Source of the DNA: a bacterium
Lineage (GTDB): Bacteria > UBA8248
Reading direction: 5' to 3'
DNA length: 64,000 nucleotides
Assembly: GCA_963692865.2 (NCBI GenBank)
Contig: OY843592.1
Coordinates: 1,568,001-1,632,000, forward strand
The notes below the pieces were generated by a model, which had not been told where the DNA came from, ran no database searches, and saw nothing but the letters and a program-made list of their open reading frames with translations. Position numbers and translations under genes: made by a program. Positions 43,906 through 63,881 of this stretch are shown here, one piece after another; positions within the stretch are counted from its first letter, which is position 1; every line of letters begins with the position of its first letter.

Positions 43906-45029
43906 AAATCGGGCTGCTCCGGGAAATCAAGCAGGACGAATACCGCGTCGCCTTGACGCCCGGGGCCGTTGAGGCTCTCGCGGAGGCGGGCCACGCCGTG
44001 ATGGTGGAAAAAGGCGCAGGCCTCGACGCCGGCATCGCGGATGCGGAATACGAGGCGGTGGGCGCGCGGGTTGTCCCCTCGGCCGAGGAGCTCTGGGCGG
44101 AGGGAGAGATGATCGTCAAGGTCAAGGAACCCCTGGAGCCGGAATTCCCGTTGATGCGCGAGGGGCAGATTCTGTTCGCCTTTTTGCATCTCGCCGCCTG
44201 CCCGCCCCTGGCGCGCGCGCTCGTGGAGAGCGGAGCCTGCGGCGTCGCGTTCGAGACGGTGACTTCGCCCGAGGGGGTTTTGCCCATCCTCCAGCCCATG
44301 AGCGAGATTGCGGGCCGGATGGCCGTTCAGGAAGGGGCCAAGTATCTGGGAAAGAACCTGGGGGGCCGCGGCGTTCTGCTGGCCGGGGCGCCGGGCGTTC
44401 CCCGTGGGAACGTGGTCATCCTGGGAGCCGGCATCGTGGGGAAGAACGCGGCCAAGATAGCGGTCGGGATGCACGCGGGCGTCACGGTGTTCGACATCAA
44501 CCACGCGCGGCTCGAATACATCGACGATATTTTCGACGGGCGCGTCAAGACGCTGGTCTCCACGCGCTTCACCATACGCGAGGCGCTTCGCGAGGCGGAC
44601 TTGGTTATCGGCGCGGTTTTGGTGCCGGGCGGGCGCACGCCGGTTCTGGTTTCGCGCGAAATGCTCGGGGAGATGAACCCCGGCGCCGTCATCGTGGACG
44701 TGGCGGTGGATCAGGGCGGCTGCGTGGAGACGATACGCCCCACCTATCACTCGGAGCCCACCTACGTCGTGGACGGCGTCGTCCACTACGGGGTGGCGAA
44801 CATGCCGGGCGTCGTCCCCCGCACGAGCGCCATCGCGCTCTCGAACGCCGTACTGCCCTACGCGCTGGAGTTGGCGAACTCCGGCCTGAAAGAAGCGGCG
44901 AGGCGCAATCCGCACTTGGCCTGCGGCCTGAACGTGGCCGGGGGGCGCATCACGCACGCGGGCGTGGCGGAAGCCCTGGGCGTGGAGGGCGCAAGCGCGG
45001 GAGAGGCGCTCGCCTGGAGGGGTTGTTGA
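43902..45029 (+). CDS. ald: Alanine dehydrogenase
   Basis: EIK.DEYRVALTP..KVKEP..PMSEIAGR..DVAVDQGGC.ET..VANMPG. Confidence 0.95.
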   Translation: MKIGLLREIKQDEYRVALTPGAVEALAEAGHAVMVEKGAGLDAGIADAEYEAVGARVVPSAEELWAEGEMIVKVKEPLEPEFPLMREGQILFAFLHLAACPPLARALVESGACGVAFETVTSPEGVLPILQPMSEIAGRMAVQEGAKYLGKNLGGRGVLLAGAPGVPRGNVVILGAGIVGKNAAKIAVGMHAGVTVFDINHARLEYIDDIFDGRVKTLVSTRFTIREALREADLVIGAVLVPGGRTPVLVSREMLGEMNPGAVIVDVAVDQGGCVETIRPTYHSEPTYVVDGVVHYGVANMPGVVPRTSAIALSNAVLPYALELANSGLKEAARRNPHLACGLNVAGGRITHAGVAEALGVEGASAGEALAWRGC

Positions 45030-45774
45030 AAAAGTCCTTGCAGGTCAGTCGGTAATCCCGCCTTAGGTCAGACATATATGTCTGATATATCATGCGGCCC
45101 GGCCTTTTTCGCCTCTCCGGCAACGGGCCGCATGATATGCGGCCCCTACAATCCCCCAAAACCCCTTTGCCAGGGGGCTTTTCTTCCGCTTCCCCGCCGG
45201 GGCATTGCCTTTTTTACCTCCCTGACAAGGGGGGTAGGGGGGGTGGTTTTCCAGCCGAGAGGGATGTCTCCTCTACCCCTCGCGGGGAAGTCGTCTGAAA
45301 AGCAGGCGGGTGTGCGCAAGGGCGATGGTTTCGTAGGGGCCGTTCGAGAACGTCCCACATTCGGGAACGGCCCCTGCAATCGAGATTACACGCCGTCATT
45401 CCGGCGCATGCCGGAATCCAGGGACTTTGCTTTTGAATTCGTCTTTTCGCATGATTGTTTTTCATGGTCGTCCTGCGGTTCGAAATTCACATCGGCTCTG
45501 GATTCCGGCATGCGCCGGAATGACGATCAAAACCGTCGAACCCTCCTCGCGGGTCGGACATATATGTCCGACCCGCAAAATCAACCACTCCCCGGTATGA
45601 CGGCGACGGGATACCGCCTTGCCGGAGGGTGTGTAGGGGTCGCATACCATGCGACCCTGATTTTCTCCACAAGGCGGGCCGCATGATATGTCGGACATAT
45701 ATGTCTGACCTACAAAAACCTTTCCTCCCCGGTCGCGTAAAACACTCGTTTATCAGGACTTTTTCAACAGCCCC
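45019..45774. mobile_element. TIR-bounded non-coding cassette 1 (MITE-like) filled with REP-like palindromes
   Basis: GGGGTTGTTGAAAAAGTCC (45019) and GGACTTTTTCAACAGCCCC (45756-45774); internal A, B, D, H and I hairpins; no coding capacity. Confidence 0.65.
45394..45525. repeat. CGTC-footed REP doublet (family D)
   Basis: CGTCATTCCGGCGCATGCCGGAATCCAG...CTGGATTCCGGCATGCGCCGGAATGACG; also at 52734-52761, 58081-58257 and 62605-62741. Confidence 0.85.
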
Positions 45775-45920
45775 TTGTCAGGGGGTATAAAAGGGCAACG
45801 TCCCTCACCGGGTCGGGGGGTAGAAAAAGACGGTGCGCCTTGCCGAGCCAAGGGGGTATGAAAAGGCGGCGCGCTCCAGCCGGGTGGAGGGGTTTTGCTT
45901 TTTCTTACCCCCCTGACAAA

Positions 45921-46194
45921 GGGGCTGTTGAAAAAGCCCCGCCAAGGGCAACGAACGCTCCTTTCCCGGTCGCGTCGAACCCTCATTCCTCAATCGGGTT
46001 CGACCCCCGCAAACCGCCAACGCCTCTTTCTTCACGCTGAGTAGCCACCGAAGGTGGCGTATCGAAGGGCGAGAGGAGCCGAACGCCTCGCGCCGAGCAA
46101 GAGGCAATCGCTCCCGCATTGGTTGCGATTGACCTTCGATACGCGGCTTCGCCGCTACTCAGGATGAGGCAAGGAGGACTTTTTCAACAACCCC
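45921..46194. mobile_element. TIR-bounded cassette 2 carrying a family E doublet
   Basis: GGGGCTGTTGAAAAAG...CTTTTTCAACAACCCC; flanks GACAAA/GACAAG; internal doublet 46030-46169. Confidence 0.7.
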
Positions 46195-46296
46195 GACAAG
46201 GGGGGGCAGGGGGGTTGGTTTTCAGGCCGGGAACAGGGGGCCCCCTCAAGGGGGGAGTGAAGTTGAAGTTCTTCCCGGTAGAGGGTATCCCCTCGC

Positions 46297-47001
46297 CTAG
46301 CCGCTCTCAGCCGGGGGGCTTTCGTTTTCAGACGTTCTCTTGATGAGGTCCAGCACGAATTTCCCCTGAATTTCCAGGTGCCTGATCACCAGGCGCTCGG
46401 CGCCTCTCCCGTCGTCGTCGAGAATGGCCTGCAGAATTTCGCGGTGCTCGGCCATGGAGCCCTCGAGACGTCCGGGCGCATGGAGCGTGACCACGCGGGT
46501 CTTCATGATCTGCTGCCTGAGGTTCCCGATGAGCCCCTGGAGGCGCGAGTTCCCGCAGGCGCTCGTGATGTGTCGATGGAAATCACGGTTCGCCGCCCAA
46601 TAGGCGTCCACCTCTCCGCGCTCGTGGCGCCGCTTCAAGCGCTCGAAATGTTCATGGAGCTTTCCGTTCGCCTTCCCCTCGCGGAGGTTCGGGGTCGCCA
46701 GGCGCGTGGCGAGGCCCTCCAGCACGCTCGTGATGGCGTAGATGTCCAGCACCTCGTCCTCGCTCACGAGGCTCACGTGCGCCCCCTTGTGCGGGACGAC
46801 GGTGATGTAGCCTTCCGCCGCGAGTTCCCGGAAGGCTTCGCGCAGCGGCGTTCTGCTCACGCCCATGGATTCCGTGAGCGTCGTCTCGACCAGCTTGTCT
46901 CCCGGCTGGAAGATGCCGTTCAGGATGGCGTCCTTTATCTGCTCGGAGGCCATCTTGCTCAGGGATTTGGGTTTTTCGATCTGGACGCCCGGTATACGCA
47001 T
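46297..47001 (-). CDS. GntR family (FadR/VanR-type, FCD domain) transcriptional regulator
   Basis: PGDKL.E..L...MGVSRTPLREA..L.AEG HTH; N..FH and EH..I..AI FCD motifs. Confidence 0.93.
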   Translation of the reverse strand: MRIPGVQIEKPKSLSKMASEQIKDAILNGIFQPGDKLVETTLTESMGVSRTPLREAFRELAAEGYITVVPHKGAHVSLVSEDEVLDIYAITSVLEGLATRLATPNLREGKANGKLHEHFERLKRRHERGEVDAYWAANRDFHRHITSACGNSRLQGLIGNLRQQIMKTRVVTLHAPGRLEGSMAEHREILQAILDDDGRGAERLVIRHLEIQGKFVLDLIKRTSENESPPAESG

Positions 47002-47106
47002 ATCAATCCCCAAACGACCCCTTGTAAGATTGTTGAAACAGTCCCCTAAAAGCAGGGAATGGATTTCTCAATCGACATACGCATCATGAAACCACTCCCC
47101 CCTTGA

Positions 47107-47279
47107 GGGGGCTGTTGAAAAACCCGGAGAGAGACAATTTGTTTGTAGGGGCCGCATATCATGCGGCCCGCCGCCGGAGGGGCGAAAATGCCGGGCCGCA
47201 TGATATGCGGCCCCTACAAAAACCTTTCCTCCCCGGTCGCGTAAAACACTCGTTCATCAGGACCTTTTCAACAGCCCCC
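47107..47279. mobile_element. TIR-bounded cassette 3 carrying a perfect family A REP doublet
   Basis: GGGGGCTGTTGAAAA...TTTTCAACAGCCCCC; GTAGGGGCCGCATATCATGCGGCCC (47145) and its inverse ending at 47217. Confidence 0.7.
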
Positions 47280-47338
47280 GTATGGAGCGTTGACGGCCGG
47301 ATGCCGGAGAAGCCTCCGAAAGTATCCATGCTTTCCCC

Positions 47339-48529
47339 TCATACCACGCCTTCATCCCGGAGGGCGCTTCTTTGCGCCTCGTCCATGCCGAGGACGGATT
47401 CGAGCACCTCGTCGGTGTGCTGGCCCAGCGCGGGCGGGGGCGTGCGCACGGCGCCCGGGGTCTCGGAGAGCTTGATGGGAACGCCGGTCACCTTCGTGGG
47501 ACCGGCGACGGGCACGTCTACGTCCACCACCATCTCGCGCGCGAGCACCTGGGGGTCGCTCAACACCTGCGCGAGGTTGTTGATGGGGCCGCACGGGATG
47601 CCCGCTCCCCGCAGGGTTTCGAGCGTCTCTCCCACCGTCTTCCCGGCGAAGAAGGCGTCGAGAATCTCCTGGAGCTCCAGGCGGTTGTCCACCCGGTCCT
47701 TGTTGACGGCGAACTTTGGGTCTTCCTTGATGTCCCCCAGCCCCATGGCGTCGCAGAACCTGCGCCAGAGGCTGTCGTTGCCCACGCCGAGGTTGAAGTA
47801 TCCGTCCCTGCACGCATACATCTCGTACGGCGTGATGGAGGGATGCTTGTTCCCCCGCCTGGGCGGAAGCTTTCCGGTCCCGAAGTAGTTGTTCGCGTGG
47901 TAGGTCAGCAGGGCCACCTGCCCGTCGAGCATGCCGACGTCGACCATCTGCCCCACGCCCGTCTTCTCGCGGTGGTAGAGGGAGAGCAGAACCCCCTGGG
48001 CGGCGAGCATTCCCGCCGTGATGTCCGCGATGGACGCGCCGAATTTGCTCGGCGGGCCGTCGGGCTCTCCGGTGATGCTCATGATCCCGCCCTCGCCCTG
48101 GATGACCACGTCGAAGCCGGGCTCGCTCCTTCTGGGGCCCGTCTGGCCGAAGCCCGAGAGCGAGGCGAAAATGACCGCGGGGTTGATGCGGTGAATTTCC
48201 TCCCAGGAAAAGCCGAGCTTGTCCAGCGCGCCGGGCCTGAAATTCTCCACGACGACATCGCCTTTGCGGATCAAATCCCGCAGAAGCTCCTTGCCGCGCT
48301 CGTCCTTCAGGTTGAGCGTGAGGCTTTTCTTGTTGCGGTTGATCGAGATGAAGTACGTGCTCACCCCGTTCAGAAAGGGAGGCCCCCAGCCCCGCGTGTC
48401 GTCCCCGCCCTTGGGATGTTCGATCTTGATGATTTCCGCGCCCATGTCGCCCAGCATCATGGTGCAGTAGGGTCCCGCGAGAATTCGCGTGAGGTCGACG
48501 ACCCGGATTCCTTCCAGTGGTCCAGCCAT
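47339..48529 (-). CDS. Class III CoA-transferase (CaiB/BaiF family)
   Basis: PL.GIRVVDL..AGPYC..GAE.IKIE..NRNKKS..ENFRPG..SGFGQ.GP..GFD..PP.LGQHT. Confidence 0.95.
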   Translation of the reverse strand: MAGPLEGIRVVDLTRILAGPYCTMMLGDMGAEIIKIEHPKGGDDTRGWGPPFLNGVSTYFISINRNKKSLTLNLKDERGKELLRDLIRKGDVVVENFRPGALDKLGFSWEEIHRINPAVIFASLSGFGQTGPRRSEPGFDVVIQGEGGIMSITGEPDGPPSKFGASIADITAGMLAAQGVLLSLYHREKTGVGQMVDVGMLDGQVALLTYHANNYFGTGKLPPRRGNKHPSITPYEMYACRDGYFNLGVGNDSLWRRFCDAMGLGDIKEDPKFAVNKDRVDNRLELQEILDAFFAGKTVGETLETLRGAGIPCGPINNLAQVLSDPQVLAREMVVDVDVPVAGPTKVTGVPIKLSETPGAVRTPPPALGQHTDEVLESVLGMDEAQRSALRDEGVV

Positions 48530-48542
48530 GAGTGTCGCTCCG

Positions 48543-49667
48543 TCAGGTTCGGATGAGTGAAATCAGCACGCCGGCCGCAATCGCCGAGCCGATGACGCCC
48601 GCCACGTTGGGGCCCATCGCGTGCATGAGCAGAAAATTTCCCGGATTCTCGTCGGCCCCCACCTTCTGGACGACGCGCGCCGCCATGGGAACCGCGCTCA
48701 CGCCCGCAGCGCCGATGAGCGGATTGATCGGCGTGCGGCTGAACGCGGCCATGATCTTGCCGAATATCACGCCGGTGGCCGTGCCGATGCCGAAGGCGAT
48801 GAAGCCCAGCAGGAGGATGCCGATGGTCTGCCACTTGAGAAAAGTCTCGGCCGTCATCGAGGCGCCCACCGAGACGCCGAGGAAAATCGTCACGATGTTG
48901 AGCAGCGCGTCTTCGGAGGTCTTCAGGAGCCTCTCCACGACGCCGCACTCGCGGAAGAGGTTCCCGAGCATGAGCATCCCGATGAGGGGCGCCGCCGAGG
49001 GCAGGAGAAGGCCCGTGAGCAGCGTCGTGACGATGGGGAAGAGGATGCGGACGGGCTTTTCGATCTCCTTGAGTTGCATCATCTCCCGCGAGCGCTCCTC
49101 CCCGGTGGTGAGCGCCTTCATGATGGGGGGCTGAATCATCGGGACGAGCGCCATGTAGCTGTAGGCGGCGACGGCGATGGGGCCGAGCAGGTGGGGCGCC
49201 AGCTTCGAGGCGGTGTAGATGGCCGTGGGGCCGTCCGCGCCGCCGATGATGCCGATGGCGCCCGCTTCCGAGAGGTTGAAGCCCAGGAATATGCTCCCGA
49301 GCAGCGTGGCGAAGATGCCGAACTGCGCCGCCGCGCCCAGGAGCAGCGTCTTGGGGTTCGCCAGCAGCGGCCCGAAATCCGTGAGCGCCCCGATGCCCAT
49401 GAAGATCAAAGGCGGGAACACGCCCGCCTTCACCCCGAAGTAGAAATAGTTGATGAGGCCGCCTTTGTCGAAAATACCGGTTTCGGGCAGGTTCGAGAGC
49501 AGCATGCCGAACCCGATGGGCACCAGCAGCAGGGGCTCGAAGCCCTTGTGGATGGCCAGGTAGAGCAGGAGGCAGGAAATGCCGAGCATGAGGGCGTCGC
49601 CCGCGCCCAGCGACGAGAACCCGGTGAGGGAGATGAACTCGGCGACCGAGTGGAACAGGCGGCTCAT
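48543..49667 (-). CDS. Na+-translocating decarboxylase beta subunit (OadB/MmdB)
   Basis: [47 protein letters not shown]; ATG overlaps the upstream stop. Confidence 0.95.
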
Positions 49668-50071
49668 GAGACCTCCAGCAGCAGTTGGGAGGCGTCCACC
49701 TTGTCGCCCTTGCGAACGTGAACCGCCTGCACGACGCAGTCCGAATCCGCGAGGATCACGTTCTCCATCTTCATCGCTTCCAGCACCAGAAGCGTATCCC
49801 CGGCTCTCGCCGAATCGCCCGGGGCGACCTCGACGGAGAGCACCACGCCCGGAAGGGGAGCGAGTATCCTGCCGCCGACGTTCGCCGCCCTGGGCGCGGA
49901 CTTGCGCGCGGCGGCGGAGGGACGGGGAGCGGCGGCGGCCTTCTCCTCCTCTTCCACCTGAACGCGATGCGTCTGTCCGTCCACCGTGATTTCGAGTTCG
50001 TTCGAGCCGGGGCCGCGCTCCACGCTCACCGCGTAGCGTTTTCCGTTGATGGTCAGATGGAAATTTCTCAC
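49664..50071 (-). CDS. Biotin carboxyl carrier subunit (MmdC-like)
   Basis: APLPG..EAMKMEN biotinylation motif; Ala/Pro-rich linker. Confidence 0.93.
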
Positions 50072-50388: not shown

Positions 50389-50404
50389 GGGGTAATCCTT
50401 ATCC

Positions 50405-52204: not shown

Positions 52205-52408
52205 GGGGCTGTTGAAAAAGCCTGTTCCGGGGTCGGGCGGACACACAGGTCCGCCCCTGCGTTTCGTTTCGCAGAGGTTGGCAGGTCAGACATATATGTC
52301 TGACATATCATGCGACCCGTATTGTGAAGGCGAAAAGGCAGGGCCGCATGATATGCGGCCCCTACGGTGAGATCCCGACCGGCCCGCAAGGGGTTTTTCA
52401 ACAAACCC
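52205..52408. mobile_element. TIR-bounded cassette 4
   Basis: GGGGCTGTTGAAAAAG...TTTTTCAACAAACCC; contains a GGGCGGACACACAGGTCCGCCC hairpin, a B/A hybrid and an A REP. Confidence 0.65.
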
Positions 52409-52518: not shown

Positions 52519-52654
52519 CTTCACCCTGAGTAGCGGCGAAGCCGCGTATCGAAGGGCGAAGTTCGAGCTTGCGGGGTCAAACACGATTGATGAATGAGTG
52601 TTTGCGCGCCTCCTATCCTTCGATACGGCGCATGCGCGCCTACTCAGGATGAGG
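52519..52654. repeat. Family E doublet (C(C/T)TCA.CCTGAGTAG..CGTATCGAAGG)
   Basis: Inverted arms with internal mini-hairpins; also at 46030-46169, 62475-62516 and 63558-63652. Confidence 0.8.
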
Positions 52655-52690: not shown

Positions 52691-52908
52691 GAGGTTGTTG
52701 AAAAAGTCCTCCTCGGTCCGAATTGAGTACCGCCGTCATTCCAGCGAAAGCCGGAATGACGGCGTGTAATCTCGATTGTAGGGGCCGCATATCATGCGGC
52801 CCGTTGCCGGAGAGGCGAAAAAAGCCGGGCCGCATGATATGTCAGACATATATGTCTGACCTACGGCGGGATTACCGACCGGCCCGCAAGGACTTTTTCA
52901 ACAACCCC
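52691..52908. mobile_element. TIR-bounded cassette 5
   Basis: GAGGTTGTTGAAAAAGTCC...GGACTTTTTCAACAACCCC; contains a collapsed D, an A and an A/B hybrid REP. Confidence 0.7.
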
Positions 52909-53086
52909 GTTAAGGGGGGGGGTAGGGGGGGGTGATTTCAAGCCGGAGAAGGACGAGGGACAGGCGCGGGGACCTGTCCCTACGGTCGTCATGATGGTTG
53001 TAACGTAGTGGGCCGTTCTTGAGAACGGCCCACGCGGAGAAACGAGCGCTTCACGAAGCAAACATTCGCCGTCCGCCCGAATCGCC

Positions 53087-55153: not shown

Positions 55154-55310
55154 GAAAGAATCTCCTGTGTGAACGGAAGGCCGGAGCCTCCGTTATTGAG
55201 GGGCTGTTGAAAAAGTCCCCTAAAAACAGGGAAAGGATTTCTCAATCGACATACGCTTAATAAATGACTCCCCCTTGAGGGTTATGACTACCCAAGGAGA
55301 GGGAAACTTT

Positions 55311-55458
55311 ACTCCCCCCTTGAGGGGGAGTCGAAGAGGCCGAGCGCTTTGTGCGAAGGCCGATTCGGTGGGGGGACATGCCACAGAAAAGAGCTCCCCC
55401 CACCAGCGCGACTTCGAGCTTCGCCCTCGTCTTGCTGACTCCCCCTCAAGGGGGGAGT
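55311..55458. repeat. Family F doublet (ACTCCCCCCTTGAGGGGGAGTC...GACTCCCCCTCAAGGGGGGAGT)
   Basis: Near-identical copy at 62184-62350; fragments near 46242, 47094, 52110, 52198, 55266 and 60487. Confidence 0.85.
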
Positions 55459-55540
55459 GATTGTTGAGTACTCTACAGGGAGAGAGATTTATCTCCTCTC
55501 ACTCCCCGGTCTTCGCCCCTTCGTCTCCTTCGGGCAACGC

Positions 55541-57229: not shown

Positions 57230-57859
57230 TTATGAGGTTTCGGAGAACGTACGAAGCATACGTTCGTAATCTTCTTCCGTGTCGATGTCGAGAAAGATAT
57301 CATCATTGGGGAGTTCGAGAAAAACGATCTGGCCGGGAGATTCGGTTTCCAGCCTTCGGATGATCCCCCGGCCTCCCGCATCGCCGCTCGTCCGGAGCAG
57401 TTCTTCTCTCAAGGAGGCAGAGAACAGCGTGGGGTTTCCGCGCCTGCCCTCGAAGGCCGGCACCGCGAGGAGAGCGTCGGGCCGGGAGGTCTGATACAGG
57501 GAAATCATGTCGTTCACAATCCCGGGCGTCAGCAGGGGCTGATCGCCCAGGACGAACAGATAGGCCTCCGCAGCCTCATGCGCCGCCTCTATGCCTGCGA
57601 TCATGCTCGTGCTCTGGCCCTCGGCGTAGCGGGGGTTGTGCGTGATGCGCAGGTTCAAGCCGCTCACGGCCTCTTTCACCTTCGCCTCCTCATGGCCCGT
57701 GACGAGGATAACCTCGGAAACTGCGCTTGCGAGCACCGCTTTCGCCGTCTTGCGCAGGACGGCCTCACCCCCCAGGGGGAGGAGGAGCTTGTTCCGCCTC
57801 AGGCGTTTCGAGAGGCCTGCGGCGAGGATGATCGCCGTGATGCGGCGCGCGTCCGCCAT
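57230..57859 (-). CDS. Nucleotidyltransferase, MocA-like (molybdenum cofactor cytidylyltransferase)
   Basis: ILAAGLS.R..NKLLL..N..Y.EG.STS..LGDQP..RGNP.LF..GD.GGR..DIDT..DY. Confidence 0.85.
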   Translation of the reverse strand: MADARRITAIILAAGLSKRLRRNKLLLPLGGEAVLRKTAKAVLASAVSEVILVTGHEEAKVKEAVSGLNLRITHNPRYAEGQSTSMIAGIEAAHEAAEAYLFVLGDQPLLTPGIVNDMISLYQTSRPDALLAVPAFEGRRGNPTLFSASLREELLRTSGDAGGRGIIRRLETESPGQIVFLELPNDDIFLDIDTEEDYERMLRTFSETS

Positions 57860-57949
57860 AGAGTGCTGTCCGCCGAAAGAGAAAAGTGAAGTTCGGGCTG
57901 CCGCGGCATGGTAAGGAGACGGGCTTCGCGGTGTCAATTCCGGGCGGGC

Positions 57950-58300
57950 GGGGCTGTTGGAAAAGTTCCGGTTTCGTGATTCGGCGTATGCGCAAGAGGG
58001 GGAGAGAGGCCGTAGGGACAGGTCGAGACCTTGGGCCGCTCACAAAAACGGCCCACTACAAGAGGCGATGCGGTTTTGATCGTCATTCCGGTGTCGGAGC
58101 CGACCGAGGAGGGAGGGTTCGACGGAATCCAGAAATGTCCCACGCGGGACATTTCACTTTGCTTTTGTATTTGACTTTTCGCTTTATCGTTTTTCTTGGT
58201 CTTCCTGCGATTCGGTATCCCCGTCTGCTCTGGATTCCGGCTTTCGCCGGAATGACGGCGGTAGCCAATTCGGAGCCAGAAGAACTTTTCCAACAACCCC
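57950..58300. mobile_element. TIR-bounded cassette 6 with 8-bp target duplication
   Basis: GGGGCTGTTGGAAAAGTTC...GAACTTTTCCAACAACCCC, flanked by GGGCGGGC on both sides; contains C, I and D repeats. Confidence 0.8.
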
Positions 58301-58515
58301 GGGCGGGCGCCGCCCGAGCCTTTCCGTTGACAACCCCTCACCTCGACCCTAATATCGGGAAGCGCTCAAAACCCACGATATTTCCCACAACACACCCGGA
58401 TGCGGGCGAGTCGTTCCACCGGTTTTGGCGCGGATTGAACGAGCGCGCTTCAAGCAGCGAATCGCAAGGATTCGAACAGTTCACTCATAGCGGAACACCC
58501 CGGAGGAGAATCACC

Positions 58516-59229
58516 ATGGCGTACAAGAACCACGAAATCATCGATCTCTCGCAAGACATCTACCAGGGACAGCCGGTGTTCGTCGGACACCCCGAAACCT
58601 GGCGCTGGACGAACATGACGCACGAGGAAAGCGCCGCCAGCGGACGCTTCAAGAGCGAGATGAGCTATTACTCGGGCATCATCCAGTTCTGCGAGCACGG
58701 CCCCACGCACGTGGATTCGGTCAGCCATCTCGACCCCTCGCCCGACGCGCCGCACATCGACGAGATGAGCTTCGATAACTTCTACAGCCGGGGCATCGCG
58801 ATTGATTTCGAAAACGTCGAGGACAACAGCTACATCAACGCCGACGACGTGAAGCGCAGGCTCGACCACTACAATTACGAGATAAAGCCGGGCGACACGC
58901 TCCTCTACACATACGGGCACTTCAAGCGCCACCACCCGACGCCTCTCTACACCACGGCCTACGCCGGCTGGACGCGCGATGCGGCCGAGTACGTTTATGG
59001 CGAGTGCGGGGCCATCAACGTGGCCACCGACGCTCCCAGCATGGATATGGCCACCAGCCCGGATTATCCCTGCCACCTCGTTTGCCGTGAACTGGGACGC
59101 ATCAACACGGAAAACCTGTGCAACATCGAACTGGTGGTGGGCAAGGAATTCCTCTATATCGGGCTTCCGCTCAAGATCCGGGGCGGGTCGGGTTCGCCGA
59201 TCCGGGCGATAGCCGTGCTGAACGCCTGA
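58516..59229 (+). CDS. Cyclase family metal-dependent hydrolase (kynurenine formamidase-like)
   Basis: IIDLS..EHGPTHVD..H; D.PS.D; ENL.N; PLKI.GGSGSPIRA; RBS GGAGGAG. Confidence 0.88.
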   Translation: MAYKNHEIIDLSQDIYQGQPVFVGHPETWRWTNMTHEESAASGRFKSEMSYYSGIIQFCEHGPTHVDSVSHLDPSPDAPHIDEMSFDNFYSRGIAIDFENVEDNSYINADDVKRRLDHYNYEIKPGDTLLYTYGHFKRHHPTPLYTTAYAGWTRDAAEYVYGECGAINVATDAPSMDMATSPDYPCHLVCRELGRINTENLCNIELVVGKEFLYIGLPLKIRGGSGSPIRAIAVLNA

Positions 59230-59251
59230 TTTCCTCTCGCGCGAGGCGAAC

Positions 59252-60286
59252 ATGAAAGCCCTGGTGAAACAGGCGAAAGGGCCCGGCAACATGGCGCTCC
59301 TGGAAGTGGAGGAGCCTCGCGTAGGCCCCGGGCAGGTGAAGGTGAAAATCGCCTATGCCGGCATCTGCGGCACGGACGTGCACATCGCCTCGGGTGAGTT
59401 TTTCCACTACTTCCCCCCGCTGGTGCTGGGGCATGAGTTCTCGGGCGAGGTGGTGGAAACGGGCGCAGGCGTCGAGGGGGTTCCGCTCGGCGCGCGGGTG
59501 ACGGCCGAACCCACGAAATCGACGTGCCGCGTCTGCCCGCACTGCATCTCGGGCCGCTACAACCGGTGCGAGGAGCGCGACATCGCGGGCGTGGTGAGCA
59601 ACGGCGCCTTCACCGACTACGTGGTCACCCGGGCGGAGTCGATTCACCGCCTGCCAGACGGCGTGAGCCTGAAGGCGGCGGCGCTCTCCGAACCCCTGGC
59701 GGTCTGCGTCCACGGGGTGTGTGAGCAATGCAGCGTGCGCGAGGGGGACGTCGTCCTCATCATGGGGCCGGGCGCCATCGGTCTTGGGTGCGCACAGGTG
59801 GCAATCGCCCACGGCGCGCGCGTGATGGTGGCGGGCGCCGGTAAGGACGCGCACAGGCTCGCGCTCGCCCGCTCGCTGGGTGCGGAGTGGACGGTGAACG
59901 TCGAGAAAGAAAACGTCCTCGAACGTGCTCTGGAAGTCACGAACGGCTGGGGGGTCGATTTGGGCGTAGAGGCGGCGGGGGCTCCCGGCGCGCTAGAAGT
60001 TTGCGTCGAGGCGGTGAAGAAGGGAGGAGAAATCCTCCAGGTGGGTCTGCCCGGCGCGCCCGTTTCGGTCGATATGGACAGGCTGGCGTTCAAGGAGATT
60101 CGCCTGGTCGGCACGTTCGGCCAGAAGCGCTCCGCCTGGCTCCTGGCCCTCGAACTGCTGGAGTCGGGCAGGGTGGACGCCGAGGCGATGGTGTCCGACG
60201 TGCTCCCGCTCGATGAATGGGAGAGAGGCTTCGACATCATGGCGCGCGGAGCGGGGCTGAAGGTGCTCCTCGCGCCCGAGGGATAG
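59252..60286 (+). CDS. Zn-dependent medium-chain dehydrogenase (sorbitol/threonine DH-like)
   Basis: GICGTD.H..GHEFSG..C..C.HC..C..EPLA..GPGAIG. Confidence 0.92.
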   Translation: MKALVKQAKGPGNMALLEVEEPRVGPGQVKVKIAYAGICGTDVHIASGEFFHYFPPLVLGHEFSGEVVETGAGVEGVPLGARVTAEPTKSTCRVCPHCISGRYNRCEERDIAGVVSNGAFTDYVVTRAESIHRLPDGVSLKAAALSEPLAVCVHGVCEQCSVREGDVVLIMGPGAIGLGCAQVAIAHGARVMVAGAGKDAHRLALARSLGAEWTVNVEKENVLERALEVTNGWGVDLGVEAAGAPGALEVCVEAVKKGGEILQVGLPGAPVSVDMDRLAFKEIRLVGTFGQKRSAWLLALELLESGRVDAEAMVSDVLPLDEWERGFDIMARGAGLKVLLAPEG

Positions 60287-60350
60287 GCCAGGAATCGGGA
60301 ATGACTGCGCAACAGGGAAGATTTGACGCGAACGGGGAGGGGCGGTTTTT

Positions 60351-60570
60351 GTAGGGGCCGCATACTATGCGGCCCGCGTCCCGGCCGGCGAGAAAGGCCG
60401 GGTCGCATAATATGCGACCCCTACACACCCTCTGGCAAGGCAGTATCCCGTCGCCGTCATACCGGTATTGCAGGGTTTTTCAACTACCCCCTCAAGGGGG
60501 GAGTGTATGGTAGGCGCTCTACATAGGTGGAGTGGTTCGGCACGACCTGCAAGGGTTTTTCAACAACCCC
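60351..60570. repeat. REP mosaic: family A doublet plus two tandem right-hand TIRs and an F hairpin
   Basis: A doublet at 60351-60424; TTTTTCAACTACCCC (to 60490) and TTTTTCAACAACCCC (to 60570). Confidence 0.7.
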
Positions 60571-60671
60571 GCCAGGCGAGGAACGGAGCATGGCCGCGCT
60601 TTTCGCCGGGAAACACGAACTCAGGGAAAGATGAGAGATATTCGGACTAACGTAAAGCATACATATAGAGG

Positions 60672-61184
60672 ATGGCACACATGAGCATCGACGGAAAAGA
60701 ATTCAGAACCGCCCTCGGCAGGTTCGCCACGGGCGTCACGGTCGTCACCGCGAAAACGTCGACCGAAGCCCGCGGCATGACGGCGAACGCGTTCTCCTCC
60801 CTCTCACTCGACCCGCCGCTCGTCCTGGTGTGTTACGACAACAAGGCGTCGAGCCTGAAGATCGTGCAGGAGGCGAAGAAGTTCGCCATCAACTTCCTGG
60901 CGGAGGAGCAGAAGAACGCCTCCGACTGGTTCGCGGGCAAGGGCCGGGACGCGGAGGATCAGTTCGCCGACATCCCGCATGAGATCGGCGAGAACGGCTC
61001 GCCCGTGCTCACGGGGAACGTGGGCGTTCTCGAATGCGACCTGCACGAGGAGCTTCCGGGGGGAGACCACACCATCGTCGTGGGGCGCGTGACGCGCGTC
61101 GTGCTCGAAGAGGAGGTGCGCGCGCCCCTTCTTTTCTACGGCAGCGCCTACCGGAAGATGGACATGGACGGCGCCTACGACTGA
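60672..61184 (+). CDS. Flavin reductase (DIM6/NTAB, HpaC-like)
   Basis: FR.ALGRFATGVTVVT..GMTANAFSSLSLDPPLV..GGDH..PLLF. Confidence 0.93.
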   Translation: MAHMSIDGKEFRTALGRFATGVTVVTAKTSTEARGMTANAFSSLSLDPPLVLVCYDNKASSLKIVQEAKKFAINFLAEEQKNASDWFAGKGRDAEDQFADIPHEIGENGSPVLTGNVGVLECDLHEELPGGDHTIVVGRVTRVVLEEEVRAPLLFYGSAYRKMDMDGAYD

Positions 61185-61220
61185 TCCTTCAATCCGGCCC
61201 TATATTCGCAAGGAGTTCCT

Positions 61221-61982
61221 TTGGCTTCATATCGCGCGGTTGCGTTCGACCTCTTCGACACGCTCGTCGATTTCGACATCTCCCTCTTCCCGGTGGTGGA
61301 GATTGACGGCAAGGAGGAGAAGACCACCTCCAAGGCGGCTTACGACGCGCTCTACGAGGGCGGTTTCCTCGTGCCGAACTACCAGGCCTTCCACCAGCTC
61401 TGGCTCCAGAACTCGAAAGAGGTCTGGGGCGAGCGCAACAACGACCCCGAGCTAAAAGAGGTTCGCTCGATAGTCCGTTTCCGTCGCCTCATGGCGCTCC
61501 TGGTGGCGATTCCCGAACAGGACAGGGAACGGGCCGCACTCACGGCCCTGAACGCCCACATGTACGGCATCGAGAATTCCGTGGTGTTCGACGCCGACCG
61601 GCTCGACGTGCTGGGGCGGATAAAAGAAGCCGGCCTGCCGGTAGCGCTCCTGAGCAACTTCGACCATGCGCCCACCGCCCGGCGGATCATCGATCGGATG
61701 GGCATCACGCCGTATATGGATTCCATCTTGATTTCAGAGGATGAGGGCTTCAGGAAGCCCGCGGCGTCGCTGTTCCTCAAGGTGGCCGAGGAGTTGGGCG
61801 TTGCGCCCGGTGAGGCGCTCTTCGTGGGCGATACGTTCGATGCCGACGTGGAGGGCCCGCAAGCGGTGGGCATGCCGTGCGCCTGGCTCAACAGGAAGGG
61901 AGCGCCCGCGCCGGAGGGAAGCCGCGCGCCCGATTTCGAGATTGCGGATATCAGGGAGGCGCTTTCGATACTGGGGTTGTAG
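61221..61982 (+). CDS. HAD-superfamily hydrolase
   Basis: FDLFDTL; LSN; KP; VGD..DV.G. Confidence 0.9.
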   Translation: MASYRAVAFDLFDTLVDFDISLFPVVEIDGKEEKTTSKAAYDALYEGGFLVPNYQAFHQLWLQNSKEVWGERNNDPELKEVRSIVRFRRLMALLVAIPEQDRERAALTALNAHMYGIENSVVFDADRLDVLGRIKEAGLPVALLSNFDHAPTARRIIDRMGITPYMDSILISEDEGFRKPAASLFLKVAEELGVAPGEALFVGDTFDADVEGPQAVGMPCAWLNRKGAPAPEGSRAPDFEIADIREALSILGL

Positions 61983-61990
61983 GAGGTCTC

Positions 61991-62760
61991 GTAGGGACAG
62001 GCCCCCGCGCCTGTCCGATGTCGGGGTGAATACAATGGACGGGCGGGCACGGTCGAACATCCCTCCTCGGAAAGCTCGACGCCCCTACGGGTTCGATTCG
62101 AGACGCGGGAGATGCGTAGGGGTGCCCCCCCGTGGTCGCCCGATTGGCTGTGCATGAAACCGATTCGTGAGAAAGGAGACTTCACTCCCCCCTTGAGGGT
62201 TGGGCTTCCCGAGGGGAAAGCCCAACGAAGAGGCCGATCCCTTGGGCGAAGGCCGATTCGGTGGGGGGACATGCCACAGAAAAATCCCCCCCCACCAGCG
62301 CGACTTCGGGCTTCGCCCTCGTCTTGCTGACTCCCCCTCAAGGGGGGAGTGGATTTGAAATTTTCCTCGGTGGGGAGAGATTTTCGTAGGGGCCGCCGGT
62401 CGGGATTGACCCACCGCGCGGCATCGGGCTTCGCAGAACGCTTGACGCCCTCATCCCGAGCAAGCATCCCGAACCCTCATCCTGAGTAGGCGCCTACGCG
62501 CCTACTCAGGGTGAGGAAGGTGGGGGGACGGCGGAGTAGGGACAGGTCGCGACCTTGGGCCGTTCTCAAAAACGGCCCCCCACAAGAGGCGATACGGTTT
62601 TGTTCGTCATTCCGGCGAAAGCCGGAATCCATTTGCGGATGCGGGTGAATCAACGACGGCGTTTCATTCCCCGCTAATGCGCGGGGACTCTGAAGAAAGG
62701 CAAAAGGCGTAAAATGGATTCCGGCTTTCGCCGGAATGACGGTGGTGGTCAATTCAGATT
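61991..62760. repeat. REP mosaic without flanking TIRs (C, GTAG variants, F, E, C-I-D composite)
   Basis: C at 61991; GTAG hairpins at 62116 and 62386; F at 62184-62350; E at 62475-62516; C-I-D at 62536-62741. Confidence 0.8.
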
Positions 62761-62816
62761 GAGGAGGGACGTTTACAGCCGCCCCCTCCAGGCCCGGTTT
62801 CTACGAGGATAATCAC

Positions 62817-63542
62817 TTGTCGGTTCTCGCGCTTCAGCATGTGGACGTGGAGAGGCTCTCGCTGCTCGAAGAGGTGCTCGCGCAGAAGGGCATTCCCGCG
62901 CGCTACCTGGCCCTCCACAAGGGGGAGCGTCTCCCGGATTCCGTGGAGGACCTGGAAGACGCGAAAGCGGTCGTCGTCCTGGGCGGGCCGATGGGCGTTT
63001 ACGAGGAGGAGAAACATCCCTGGCTGGCCGATGAGATTCGTTTCCTGGGCGATGCGATTCGCGCGGGCGTTCCGGTTTACGGCCTCTGCCTGGGCGCGCA
63101 GTTGATGGCGGCTGCGCTGGGCGCGCGCGTGTATCCGGGAGAGGGGATGAAGGAGATCGGCTGGTTCCCGGTCGATCTGGCGCCGGGGGCGAAAGGAGAC
63201 CCGCTGCTGGGGGATGAGGAGGCGAGCTTCCCGGTCTTCCAGTGGCACGGGGATACGTTCGATATTCCCGAGGGCGCCGTTCATCTGGCCTCATCCGCGC
63301 GCTACCCCAACCAGGCTTTCAGGTGGGGCGAGCGCGCCTACGCCTTTCAGTTCCACCTGGAGATTGGGCTTGAGGACATATCCAAATGGCTGGTCGCGTT
63401 CGAGGACGACATGCGTTCCCCGCGCTCGGACGCGGACGCCGAGGCGATATTACGCGATGCGCCGGGGCATATCGAGGCCTTGAACCGGCGCGCGGCGCGC
63501 TGGTTCGAGCGCTGGCTCGCTCTCGCGGGGCTTGTTGAATAA
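62817..63542 (+). CDS. Type 1 glutamine amidotransferase (GMP-synthase GATase-like)
   Basis: LQH..GGPM..GLCLGAQL..EIGW..FQWHGD..QFHLE. Confidence 0.92.
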   Translation: MSVLALQHVDVERLSLLEEVLAQKGIPARYLALHKGERLPDSVEDLEDAKAVVVLGGPMGVYEEEKHPWLADEIRFLGDAIRAGVPVYGLCLGAQLMAAALGARVYPGEGMKEIGWFPVDLAPGAKGDPLLGDEEASFPVFQWHGDTFDIPEGAVHLASSARYPNQAFRWGERAYAFQFHLEIGLEDISKWLVAFEDDMRSPRSDADAEAILRDAPGHIEALNRRAARWFERWLALAGLVE

Positions 63543-63663
63543 CCCCGCAATACCCACCCTCATCCCGAGTAGGCGCGAAGCGCCGTATCGAGGGAGAGGA
63601 CCGGCTCGGTGCAGCCCTTCGATACGCGGCTTCGCCGCTACTCAGGGTGAGGGTTTGGGGTGT

Positions 63664-63881
63664 GGGGTTGTTGAAACAGTCTACCTCCGAGGAGGGAAAG
63701 AATCCCGATCATCGAATTGTTTACCGTAGGGACAGGCCTCCGTGCCTGTCCTGATGGAGGCCTTCGCCCCGATAAGGACGTAGGACAGGCACGGAGGCCT
63801 GTCCCTACAAAACCATCGCGTCCTCCTACGCCACGTGAACCTCCAGGCCGCCGCTACCGAAACAAGGCTTTTCAACCTCCC
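63664..63881. mobile_element. Degenerate TIR-bounded cassette 7 carrying a family C doublet
   Basis: GGGGTTGTTGAAACAG...GCTTTTCAACCTCCC; C doublet at 63727-63808. Confidence 0.5.

Follow-up and report, generated by a model that had tools for sequence, protein, structure and literature searches.

Non-coding cassettes bounded by a shared terminal inverted repeat (TIR) recur in the spacers of one 64-kb stretch of bacterial DNA (the window), and their interiors are built from mixed families of REP-like hairpins. How do such hairpins come to lie within the cassettes, and does one mobile system or two account for them? A first-pass annotation had proposed two layered systems, with DDE-type shells carrying HUH-type REP cargo. 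Here, we present evidence supporting this proposal. The cassettes are MITEs, non-autonomous derivatives of an IS1182-family insertion sequence, as their ends, target-site duplications (TSDs) and target preference indicate. We propose that the GTAG-footed REPs form a second, independent system together with tyrosine transposases of the RAYT-like Y1 HUH type. The explanation as a whole, IS1182 DDE shells layered with an independent HUH REP system, is in our judgement very probable.

TIR-bounded elements of the window

The repeat system as such was confirmed. With up to 2 mismatches, the TIR GGGGYTGTTGAAAAA is matched 17 times in the window, from 45019 to 63678, against an expectation of 0.17 (maximum 1 in 100 shuffles); genome-wide it has 1073 copies. 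Pairing is not random, since 296 of 660 neighbouring pairs within 1500 bp are convergent (+-) and 83 divergent (-+). The features are as follows, with strand given where one is assigned.

45019..45774: stretch between left (45019-45033) and right (45760-45774) TIRs, 756 bp; A REPs 45125 and 45637, B REPs 45553 and 45690, CGTC-footed D doublet 45394-45525
45775..45920: H-type element bounded by the halves of a CCCC-TGACAA-GGGG hairpin; H hairpins 45771-45784 and 45910-45924
45921..46194: IS1182-type MITE, 274 bp, in an H-hairpin loop; E-type inverted-repeat element inside
47030..47282: composite insertion, 253 bp; degenerate outer left end 47030, shared right TIR 47264-47278
47108..47278: inner MITE, 171 bp, in an F-hairpin loop, left flank TTGAG; TIR, A-REP doublet, TIR
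52205..52408: MITE, 204 bp, of a 16-copy family; B hairpin 52285, A REP 52341
52519..52654: E-type element, ~136 bp; ~35-bp inverted ends with GGCGAAGCC mini-hairpins
52691..52908: TIR-bounded mosaic, 218 bp; D hairpin 52734-52761, A REP 52782, B REP 52841
52958..53031: GTAG-footed REPs outside any shell, C 52958-52979 and I 53010-53031; abut an HMGL-like gene
55200..55460: left TIR 55200-55214 and F-K element bounded by F hairpins 55312 and 55439
57950..58300: TIR-bounded cassette, 351 bp; decayed C/I-type hairpins and D doublet (58081-58257)
60317..60570: nested remnant; A-REP doublet 60355 and 60400, inner right TIR 60476-60490, outer right TIR 60556-60570
61981..62796: repeat cluster without intact TIRs; C REP 61995, F-K element ~62180-62350, E hairpin 62475-62516, I REP 62557, D doublet 62605-62741, decayed right TIR near 62770
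63528..63542, + strand: native 3' end of the GATase gene; chance TIR resemblance, 2 mismatches
63558..63652: E-type element, 95 bp; also at the same site in sister genome G014
63664..63881: shell, 218 bp; left TIR good, right TIR decayed; C-REP doublet 63730 and 63783

Both TIRs, with at most 1 mismatch, lie where they had been placed in six of the seven annotated cassettes; in the seventh, 63664-63881, the right end has decayed (about 4 mismatches, counted by eye). The largest, 45019-45774, does have both TIRs, and the AlaDH/PNT gene upstream of it terminates within the left one, its stop codon ending at 45029. The flanks of this stretch (CTGGA/TTGTC) show no TSD and it has 0 full-length relatives; it is probably a pile-up rather than a single element. 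Beside it, both loops of the H-type element have been hit by TIR elements, and the MITE at 45921..46194 has a near-TSD with a one-base offset (ACAAA/GACAA), 3 full-length relatives and 27 partial ones. The composite at 47030..47282 is flanked by GTAAG/GTATG, a TSD in 4 of 5 bases. Its inner MITE, with 13 full-length relatives (median identity 78%), carries a feet-outward doublet of A REPs (47149-47169 forward and, after a 23-nt spacer, 47193-47213 reverse). Full-length relatives of 52205..52408 number 12 (median 96%), and its 16-copy family (median identity 91%) has members with 5-bp TSDs; a search for a full-length relative of the mosaic 52691..52908 found none. The TSD of 57950..58300 is ambiguous owing to a flanking GGGCGGGC repeat. 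In the nested remnant the inner element was inserted in an F loop (CTCAA), and the left TIR has been lost.

The annotation had also listed five orphan ends, one of which, 55200, stands as a left TIR for which no right partner was found; it shares a 50-bp subterminal sequence with the left end at 47030. The latter is no orphan but the degenerate left end of the composite whose right end is 47278, and two nested elements terminate on the right at 60490 (the inner one) and 60570 (the outer one). The end at 63527 is a false positive, being the GATase gene's own 3' end, which is present in sisters without any TIR. The 0.8-kb cluster at 61981-62796, which has no good TIRs, was missing from the earlier list.

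The cognate insertion sequence and its target sites

The cognate insertion sequence is 1514 bp long, has the same TIRs and a 5-bp TSD, and occurs in two identical copies, both outside the window, with the TSDs TTGAG and CTCAA. These two are among the 22 of 2196 candidate long TIR pairs whose 5-bp flanks are identical, versus 2.1 expected. The open reading frame of the insertion sequence encodes a 480-aa DDE transposase with DUF772, DDE_Tnp_1 and DDE_Tnp_1_6 domains, which scores 345.5 bits on the NCBIfam model NF033551 IS1182 (cut-off 270); the ends had been called IS1182/IS5-like, and the IS1182 part of that call holds. Across the genus, 14 of 23 genomes have this transposase, with up to 33 copies, and it is missing from all 5 genomes without the TIR.

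Exact repeats flanking the 443 nearest convergent TIR pairs are 5 bp long in 70 cases, 4 bp in 17 and 6 bp in 3. In 80 reconstructed empty sites the six left bases are C at 0.5-0.8 and the right side is G at 0.5-0.8, and the commonest TSDs, CTCAA/TTGAG (16) and GACAA/TTGTC (12), are the F and H loops. This insertion into hairpin loops fits the IS1182 family, in which, according to PMC5678879, IS1272 targets stem-loops and some members target palindromes. Clustering of 295 TIR pairs yielded families of 24, 23, 23, 16, 10, 8 and fewer copies, with identity up to 98%; chimeric members with swapped ends or swapped modules were seen. Since only 70 of 443 pairs have a perfect TSD and four of the seven window cassettes lack full-length relatives, it may be that many cassettes never transposed as a whole.

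Empty and occupied sites in sister genomes

Empty sites are common among the sisters (labelled G001 and so on; the source genome is G000). The 1289-bp spacer holding 45019..45774 (S1) measures 4-18 bp in 14 of the 16 sisters with both anchors. The spacer of the 47030 composite (S2) is 334 bp long in G000 and ~257 bp shorter, at 76-80 bp, in 13 of 17 sisters, which lack the whole 253-bp composite 47030..47282. The cassette at 57950..58300 (spacer S5) is missing from 9 of 15 sisters with both anchors (148-175 bp vs 529 bp). The spacer at 61981..62796 is 9-24 bp long in G010, G001, G007, G033, G009 and G015; a TIR search covering these except G033 was negative in all five, and other sisters have TIR-bounded elements there. 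The spacer of 63664..63881 is 25-30 bp in G002, G010, G016, G007 and G033, and G013 and G031 have intact right TIRs at the position of its decayed right end. Outside the shells, the site at 52958..53031 holds A-type REPs, I-type REPs or none in the sisters.

Other insertions share a site across genomes. The left TIR at 57950 is at the identical position in G014, G011, G012 and G031, with a different interior in each, and the outer right TIR at 60556-60570 is at the same site in 8 of 8 aligned genomes. At this nested remnant, a GATAG duplication can be read on both flanks in G013 and G016; the left flank of G011 is one base off, and in G000 the left end is lost.

That the mosaics are artefacts of repeat assembly is scarcely credible. 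Such repeats are hard to assemble, and short-read contigs from public runs end exactly at TIRs, but the window lies on a 3.94-Mb contig, the nested architecture recurs at the same orthologous sites in independently assembled sisters (several of them single contigs), and gene-to-TIR junctions show 0 differences in contigs of three runs, all from one study and possibly from the source sample. A host-serving role under selection, in which the repeats would for instance act as terminators, stabilise mRNA or bind nucleoid or regulatory proteins, with mobility secondary, could be argued from the strict confinement of the repeats to spacers, often right behind stop codons, from the maintenance of stem pairing by covariation and from shells kept at one site in up to 8 species. 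We regard it as very unlikely, as spacers are empty in many sisters, flanking genes give no sign of needing the elements, same-site interiors are unrelated between species, TSDs and an autonomous insertion sequence account for the spread, and no Rfam family matched at gathering score. It would, moreover, be compatible with the mobile-DNA explanation.

REP hairpins, RAYT-like genes and layering

The claim of at least eight hairpin families proved correct, all being multi-copy. Genome-wide counts are 202 + 98 for A, 65 + 56 for B, 192 for C, 40 + 19 for I, 97 for the E 12-mer, 111 for F and 66 for H; D has 24 short hairpins and ~260 ends per strand, and E has ~150 ends per strand forming 107 pairs of median length 117 bp, with the reported GAA mini-loops visible. 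Compensatory stem changes were borne out. Position 4 of the A stem and its partner (n=326) are C-G in 202, T-A in 98, A-T in 15 and non-Watson-Crick in 11 hairpins, and the B pair (n=138) is A-T in 65, G-C in 56 and non-Watson-Crick in 17. The GTAG foot is one-sided in 277 of 300 A hairpins, and REP neighbour pairs are feet-outward in 170 cases versus 18 feet-inward and 23 tandem. Both features match the REP/REPIN architecture given in PMC3733652 and PMC3116915; the GTAG-footed hairpins here form REP doublets with feet outward. For the CGTC-footed D family and for E, F and H, no enzyme was found.

Genes for RAYT-like Y1 HUH proteins number two intact and one truncated in this genome. On Pfam Y1_Tnp (cut-off 23) the two intact proteins reach 26.2 and 24.1 bits, and on NCBIfam REP_Tyr_transpos 65.2 and 59.3 bits, below its curated cut-off of 80. 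They have 782 homologues, several named RayT by their source; H75, H77 and Y161 are invariant or nearly so among 45 sequences, and Foldseek gave 30 hits at E <= 0.001, every one a Y1 HUH transposase and 4er8 among them, while a single-sequence search of PDB sequences gave no match. One gene (RAYT#2) has 13 A/B REPs within 600 bp either side, the other (RAYT#1) is flanked by C REPs, and paralogues in sisters adjoin C/J or I REPs. The RAYT-like proteins may act on these REPs and move them.

Could a single system suffice, with GTAG hairpins as MITE modules, those outside shells as shell remnants and RAYT-like genes as bystanders or domesticated? Shells occupy 2.05% of the genome yet contain half of the A and B hairpins, and decayed or lost TIRs are frequent (as in spacers S6 and S7 and at 63866-63881), so that too many hairpins are counted as "outside" shells. 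G009, G010 and G015 lack A and C REPs together with TIRs, and G033 lacks REPs and the transposase. G011, a single 4.3-Mb contig (94% complete), has 69 A, 84 I and the most C REPs (329), and neither PF01797 nor either G000 protein detected a RAYT-like gene there; thus, REPs can be abundant without a detectable RAYT. Against this, G007 combines 100 I-type REPs and two RAYT-like genes with 0 TIR matches and no IS1182 transposase; in this one sister, REPs and RAYT occur without shells or insertion sequence. It is the only genome in which presence and absence separate the two systems; A and C REPs otherwise co-occur with TIRs. Moreover, each RAYT-like paralogue has its own REP family around it, which would not be expected of bystander genes, shells do not enclose 137 of the 192 C hairpins, and the foot and doublet layout is that of published REPs. 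We therefore judge a single system to be unlikely, though less so than a host-serving role.

For two layered systems, the contents of the shells are informative. At least one GTAG REP is present in 174 of 295 shells and in 59 of 83 elements with perfect TSDs, which argues that the DDE system copies REPs along as passengers; A/B REPs occur in most members of five of the eight largest MITE families. No clean insertion of a REP doublet into, or excision from, an otherwise identical shell was found, and the boundaries of indels between shell copies fall within repeated modules. REPs within TSD-flanked elements, chimeric family members and same-site shells with unrelated interiors together support DDE shells whose REP cargo is shuffled combinatorially.

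In the mechanism that we propose, the 480-aa transposase would recognise the ~19-bp ends GGGGYTGTTGAAAAAGCC, presumably acting in trans on MITEs, and insert whatever DNA two ends enclose into a short hairpin of the form C-run/N5/G-run, at the loop, duplicating the 5 loop bases. Hairpins of F, H and further repeat families are its preferred targets, and because many of these lie inside resident shells, elements nest in one another; deletions and alternative choices of end pairs would then generate new mosaics. Feet-outward GTAG REP doublets would be served by the RAYT-like Y1 HUH enzymes, and the model also presumes a route by which this cargo entered the shells. Doublets between two IS1182 ends would be copied passively at each shell transposition, and a large share of the REP population would thereby be spread by a DDE enzyme. 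The spacers of this uncultured bacterium hold IS1182-type MITEs, many with REP hairpins inside, and so two known kinds of selfish DNA stacked one within the other.

Terminal inverted repeats and an IS1182-family insertion sequence

The terminal inverted repeat (TIR) GGGGYTGTTGAAAAA occurs 17 times in the window at up to two mismatches, always between positions 45019 and 63678; 100 shuffles of the window gave a mean of 0.17 matches and a maximum of 1. Seven non-coding cassettes bounded by this repeat had been delineated in the first-pass annotation, and six of them have both ends at the positions assigned there, with at most one mismatch each; in the seventh, at 63664-63881, the left end stands and the right end is decayed. 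A solitary end placed at 63527 turns out to be the last codons of a GATase gene itself, conserved in sister genomes without any TIR. Across the source genome (G000; 4.15 Mb in 8 contigs, 61% G+C), in which the window is C1:1568001-1632000, the motif is present in 1073 copies, 540 on one strand and 533 on the other. The 660 pairs of neighbouring TIRs lying within 1500 bp comprise 296 convergent pairs, with a median span of 253 bp, 147 and 134 tandem pairs in the two orientations, and 83 divergent pairs. An oriented alignment of 1072 ends contains ~19 conserved bases (GGGGYTGTTGAAAAAGCC) and an unexpected C-rich block 6-11 bases outside the end.

Throughout the genome, 16-mers present in at least five copies account for 4.1% of the sequence. 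Within the window such 16-mers cover 0.1% of the first 45 kb and 14.8% of the last 19 kb, and large open reading frames of 1348 and 1393 amino acids lie in the repeat-poor part, positions 1-45000. The genes between the cassettes are those of ordinary metabolism: AlaDH/PNT, a GntR/FCD regulator, CoA-transferase III, OAD beta, a carboxyl transferase, an HMGL-like protein, an enolase-like protein, Fe-ADH, a MobA-like transferase, Zn-ADH, flavin reductase, a HAD hydrolase and GATase. Scanning window positions 44000-64000 against Rfam gave no match at the gathering score. The AlaDH/PNT gene (43902-45029) now stops at a TGA inside the left TIR at 45019-45033 and in sister genomes a few codons earlier at a TAG (ttcgcctag), so that the insertion rewrote the C-terminus. 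The left ends 47030-47095 and 55200-55265 have ~50 bp of subterminal sequence in common (GTCCCCTAAAA.CAGGGAA.GGATTTCTCAATCGACATACGC) and lie 20-50 bp upstream of minus-strand start codons, those of the GntR regulator and the enolase-like gene.

When all offsets and lengths were tested, identical 5-bp flanks were found right at the ends of 70 of the 443 nearest convergent pairs; flanking repeats of length 4 number 17 and those of length 6 number 3, giving a sharp peak at 5 bp. Among candidate TIR pairs 600-15000 bp apart, 22 of 2196 have identical 5-bp flanks against 2.1 expected, and two copies of an autonomous insertion sequence (IS) have a TIR at both ends and a 5-bp target-site duplication (TSD).

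Autonomous IS copies in G000, contig C1
C1:1499149-1500662, copy 1, 1514 bp, TIR at both ends, TSD TTGAG
C1:1724374-1725887, copy 2, 1514 bp, identical to copy 1, TIR at both ends, TSD CTCAA

Both copies encode one 480-amino-acid protein with the Pfam domains DUF772, DDE_Tnp_1 and DDE_Tnp_1_6, which scores 345.5 bits on the NCBIfam model IS1182 (NF033551; cut-off 270) and 91.6 bits on the next best model, IS5_4, below that model's cut-off of 140. The likening of the ends to IS1182/IS5 at first pass was therefore right as to IS1182, the cognate transposase lying above the NF033551 cut-off. Because the autonomous element with these ends encodes an IS1182-family transposase, the cassettes, or shells, are MITEs of an IS1182-family insertion sequence. 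MITE and IS have ~19 nt in common at the ends and nothing beyond ~27 nt; in having only the ends in common with the IS, in TSD length and in their location in spacers, the shells are like MITEs of DDE insertion sequences generally. GGGG-starting ends and a 5-bp TSD had suggested an origin in the Tn3 family, which is further alike in that DNA of any kind lying between two ends can be moved to give mosaics. That origin was dropped, since the autonomous element belongs to the IS1182 family; unlike the Tn3-family system, G000 has an IS1182-family cognate transposase and ends of ~19 bp.

An all-versus-all comparison of 295 convergent pairs yielded full-length families of 24, 23, 23, 16, 10, 8, 8 and 8 copies, smaller families, and 129 singletons. 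In the genome comparison three of the seven window cassettes have full-length relatives and the remaining four have none. The TSDs of the window cassettes are imperfect or ambiguous (CTCAA/GTTAA, ACAAA/GACAA, GTAAG/GTATG).

Window cassettes with full-length relatives in G000
45921-46194, 3 full-length relatives
47108-47278, 13 full-length relatives
52205-52408, 204-bp member of the 16-copy family, 12 full-length relatives, median identity 96%

From the 83 elements with perfect TSDs we rebuilt 80 distinct empty sites. These have C at a frequency of 0.5-0.8 over six bases on the left and G at 0.5-0.8 over six or seven bases on the right, and the five duplicated bases form the loop between the C-run and the G-run. 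The commonest duplications are CTCAA/TTGAG (16), GACAA/TTGTC (12) and GAGAA/TTCTC (7), the first two being the loops of the hairpin families called F and H at first pass. F is the end of a ~175-bp element, with ~165 ends per strand and 51 pairs spaced 160-200 bp. The string CCCC-N5-GGGG occurs 767 times in the G000 genome versus 193 for the control GGGG-N5-CCCC. A scheme in which each insertion makes two new targets, and so tandem arrays, gained little from the spacing of neighbours and was set aside, 5 of 71 divergent neighbour pairs abutting at 4-6 bp.

Stem-loop targets are also reported for IS1272, a staphylococcal member of the IS1182 family, in the available portions of the paper describing it, which cite a statement that some IS1182-family members target palindromes and report that IS1272 deletes its target stem-loop and leaves no TSD (PMC5678879). 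The G000 element resembles IS1272, as there described, in its short TIRs and palindromic stem-loop targets, and differs in that its insertions keep the stem and duplicate the 5-bp loop, a course that those portions draw only as a hypothetical pathway (PMC5678879). It is also unlike IS1182/IS1272 systems in its very high copy number (1073 ends in 4.15 Mb), and unlike both these systems and MITEs in general in that the shell interiors are regularly made of other repeat families.

REP hairpins and RAYT-like genes

The GTAG-footed REP hairpin families A, B, C, I and J were counted throughout the genome with family-specific patterns, and a generic census of GTAG plus a hairpin was discarded after it gave 1093 matches versus 546 in the reversed genome.

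GTAG-footed hairpins in G000, genome-wide
A, 202 (GGGCCGCAT) + 98 (GGGTCGCAT)
B, 65 + 56
C, 192
I, 40 + 19
J, 51

The GTAG foot stands on one side in 277 of the 300 A hairpins, on both sides in 5 and on neither in 18, and C, I and J are similar. Of the neighbouring hairpins at most 120 bp apart, 170 pairs are feet-outward, 18 are feet-inward and 23 are tandem. Median gaps within doublets are 22 nt for A-A and 36 nt for A-B, heterodoublets of C with J are present, and the covariation of stems claimed in the first-pass annotation was borne out. This feet-outward doublet corresponds to the "HH dimer" of Di Nocera et al. 2013 (PMC3733652) or the REPIN of Bertels and Rainey 2011 (PMC3116915), as defined in the available sections of those papers. 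The CGTC-footed family D likewise forms feet-outward doublets, of ~140 bp, with 104 of its 182 pairs measuring 120-160 bp.

D doublets in the window (CGTC + ATTCCGGC..GCCGGAAT; feet-outward, ~130-180 bp)
45394-45525
58081-58257
62605-62741

We take family D to resemble the CGTC-tagged repeats of Neisseria.

A profile search of G000 with Pfam Y1_Tnp (PF01797) at E <= 0.001 returned nothing, which proved a false negative: tblastn with open reading frames of sister genomes recovered three RAYT-like genes. A further match at C1:808281 was rejected, being the wrong-strand reading of an ABC permease.

RAYT-like genes of G000 recovered by tblastn with sister open reading frames
C1:17499-18032, minus strand, RAYT#1, intact
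C1:861542-861967, truncated copy
C1:1531610-1532143, plus strand, RAYT#2, intact, 36 kb upstream of the window

Scanned alone, the intact proteins score 26.2 and 24.1 bits on Pfam Y1_Tnp (cut-off 23); on the NCBIfam model REP_Tyr_transpos they reach 65.2 and 59.3 bits (E 6e-18 and 4e-16), below its cut-off of 80, and we therefore call them RAYT-like. PF01797 is found in most of 782 homologues at E <= 1e-5, several of which bear the name RayT or REP-associated tyrosine transposase in the source records. An alignment of 45 sequences has H75 and H77 of the HUH motif nearly invariant and Y161 invariant. With an AlphaFold2 model (mean pLDDT 81.2), all 30 Foldseek matches at E <= 0.001 are Y1 HUH transposases of the IS200/IS605 type or REP-associated; among these, 4er8, the E. 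coli REP-associated transposase with a REP hairpin, aligns at a TM score of 0.56 and an rmsd of 4.3 over 165 columns. Searching the PDB by sequence gave no match to the RAYT-like protein.

REP-RAYT systems are recognised by REP families specific to each paralogue. Around RAYT#2 lie 13 A and B REPs, on either side of the gene, and RAYT#1 has one C REP just upstream and another inside the gene; paralogues in sister genomes are accompanied by C/J REPs (G013, G002) or I REPs (G032, G007). A REP of the cognate family lies intact and in frame inside the coding sequence in five of the six intact RAYT-like genes examined (loci L114-L118), in RAYT#1 at L118:730-760, and RAYT#2 has a decayed A-type copy at the same position (L119:880-910). 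The position falls in a poorly predicted linker, model residues 86-110, between the HUH strand and the tyrosine helix. This intragenic REP could be a self-regulation site or the scar of action in cis.

Combination of shells and REPs within and among genomes

At least one GTAG REP is present in 174 of the 295 shells and in 59 of the 83 elements with perfect 5-bp TSDs. A or B REPs occur in most copies of five of the eight largest MITE families, other families containing F-K (bounded by F hairpins), E or D elements, and half of all A and B hairpins lie inside shells, which amount to 2.05% of the genome. Being situated inside TSD-bearing, multi-copy shells, these REPs would have been copied by DDE transposition. 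Comparison of shell copies gave 71 distinct indels, with boundaries in repeated modules, and no clean insertion of a REP doublet into an otherwise identical shell. Transposition may capture whatever sits between two correctly oriented ends, or cargo may arrive by nested insertion, and these are the likeliest routes of REPs into the shells; capture of DNA between two ends has been demonstrated experimentally for TIMEs, according to the available part of that study (PMC4133298). Some members of the G000 families have swapped right halves or swapped hairpin modules, and 18 of the 83 perfect-TSD elements contain extra internal TIR copies. Nesting into internal hairpin targets, together with deletion and alternative pairs of ends, suffices to account for the mosaics.

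One sister genome separates the two systems. G007, complete in one contig, has 100 I-type REPs and two RAYT-like genes, and neither a TIR match nor an IS1182 transposase was found there. G011, a single 4.3-Mb contig, has 69 A, 329 C and 84 I REPs, its C count being the highest in the genus, and three queries (PF01797 and each intact G000 protein) found no RAYT-like gene in it, which is evidence against a strict dependence of REPs on a RAYT.

Of 18 genomes sampled within the genus, 13 have the strict 19-mer end; none of 12 from outside the genus has it, and its reversed control was absent from every genome sampled. Most public contigs containing the 19-mer are MAGs titled Nitrospinota or Nitrospinaceae; a scan of the collection gave single matches in unrelated phyla (Bacteroidales, Planctomycetota and others), with ~17 chance matches expected by our estimate. 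The IS1182-family transposase is present in 14 of 23 genomes of the genus, with a maximum of 33 copies per genome. It was found in none of the five that have no TIR match, and it also had no match in G003 and G005, which are fragmented TIR-positive MAGs.

A 20-kb region has syntenic counterparts in 22 sister genomes (74-94% identity). From 17 syntenic stretches we measured eight spacers (S1-S8) between coding anchors.

Spacer lengths in G000 and in sister genomes
S1 (45016-46296), 1289 bp in G000; 4-18 bp in 14 of 16 sisters with both anchors
S2 (47014-47338), 334 bp in G000; 76-80 bp in 13 of 17 sisters
S5 (57938-58449), 529 bp in G000; 148-175 bp in 9 of 15 sisters
S7, 824 bp in G000; 9-24 bp in 6 sisters
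S8, 354 bp in G000; 25-30 bp in 5 sisters

The excess of ~257 bp at S2 is the length of the stretch 47030-47282 together with a duplication of 5 bp (GTAAG/GTATG), so that the end at 47030, taken for an orphan at first pass, is the left end of a composite that, to judge from this length difference, moved as one unit by using the right end of the inner MITE. Full-length IS copies lie inside orthologous spacers of G014 (S5, locus L129) and G034 (S4, locus L130), where G000 has short cassettes only. Contigs of public sequencing runs break at TIRs and most of their joints reflect cross-mapping between repeat copies; none of these contigs bridges an empty site, and taken alone they are uninformative on polymorphism within the population either way. 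A high share of the sequence is present in four runs, all from a single study, and the assembly may derive from these.

In four of the eight spacers, up to eight species have the shell boundary at an identical position, with unrelated interiors. At a site outside the shells (52958-53031), sisters have different REP families or none. The left TIR of S5 is common to G000, G014, G011, G012 and G031, with interiors from ~165 bp to 3.1 kb and, in G014, a full IS nested inside. The right TIR of S6 has the same position in all eight genomes aligned, and a GATAG duplication is found on both flanks in sisters that keep the left end (read in G013 and G016). S7 and S8 follow a like pattern, with a shared boundary and differing interiors.

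Interior of S6 by genome
G000, G031 and G002, A-REP doublets
G012, G016 and G014, H-type element
G011, F-K element
G013, C REP and D doublet

In G000, S6 can be read as an inner MITE that would have entered an older, outer MITE at its F loop (CTCAA), the left part then being deleted. It is also conceivable, and in our judgement improbable, that the shells are exchangeable cassettes. The transposase may recognise a stem-loop target, as IS1272 does, and a resident MITE, being a long stem-loop too, could be exchanged foot to foot for an incoming element, by a replacement chemistry taken from the available portions of the IS1272 paper (PMC5678879). Exchange would account both for the identical TIR positions with unrelated interiors at four of the eight spacers and for the identical GATAG duplication at S6 in sisters keeping both ends. 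On this view REP doublets would travel as passengers at a third level, in MITEs that depend on an IS, and would reach high numbers even without an enzyme of their own, as in G011. For S6, nested insertion followed by deletion explains the observations at least as well.

Relation to known systems and significance

Each part is of a known kind: an IS1182-family insertion sequence with its MITEs, GTAG and CGTC REPs and REPINs with RAYT-like genes, and mosaic clusters. In the available sections of PMC3116915 and PMC3733652, REPIN-RAYT systems have the same one-sided GTAG foot, hairpins of 20-25 nt, feet-outward doublets with a 20-40-nt spacer, heterodimers of stem variants, Y1 HUH genes bordered by a REP family of their own, and several REP families and paralogues per genome. 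Unlike the systems described there, the host is an uncultured lineage labelled Nitrospinota ("Nitrospin" is absent from the available text of PMC3733652). The system is further unlike REPIN-RAYT in that the G000 proteins do not reach the NCBIfam RAYT cut-off, REPs are present in over half of the IS1182-type shells, and a cognate REP lies inside RAYT-like coding sequences (five of six intact genes examined, decayed in the sixth).

REP dimers inside long palindromes are recorded for A. variabilis and H. neapolitanus in the same text, which reads the palindromes as targets and, in those sections, names no DDE element (PMC3733652). The CGTC-1 dimers of H. neapolitanus all lie within a 41-bp palindrome (GGGaaGCTT-GAAAaACC ... 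GGTaTTTCgAAGC-gCCC), as given there, and its consensus resembles the G000 ends (PMC3733652). By analogy, this Halothiobacillus neapolitanus palindrome may likewise be the MITE shell of an IS1182-like element.

In the interleaving of small repeat families within spacers, G000 is like the BIMEs of E. coli and the mosaic intergenic regions of Neisseria. Insertion sequences that home in on palindromic repeats are a further likeness; Tobes and Pareja 2006 list IS3, IS110, IS4, IS256 and IS5 among REP-targeting families, with no mention of IS1182 in the available portion (PMC1525189). Unlike those elements, the G000 element mainly targets hairpins of C- and G-runs that are not REPs, and REPs are its cargo rather than its target. 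A 2024 review of MITEs (PMC10969869) mentions neither IS1182, nor RAYT, nor nesting. The open-access literature yielded no explicit link of REP doublets in long palindromes to a DDE element, no IS1182-derived MITEs and no loop-duplicating insertion.

For annotation these repeats are a warning: among species with flanking genes ~90% identical, spacers vary in length and content by up to 1.3 kb, and short-read assemblies break exactly at the repeat ends. The IS1182 family is, to our knowledge, little studied, and the G000 element, with its hairpin-loop targets and loop-sized duplications, is a candidate for loop-duplicating insertion in it. Beyond these two points and the stacking of two chemistries, the repeats are selfish DNA of known kinds. 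That stacking is a natural case of two modes of transposition in one genome, DDE cut- or copy-and-paste on double-stranded DNA and HUH on single strands. We know of no model of REPIN population dynamics that considers hitchhiking in MITEs; with both candidate enzymes and all parts identified, such hitchhiking becomes testable as a partial source of REP abundance.
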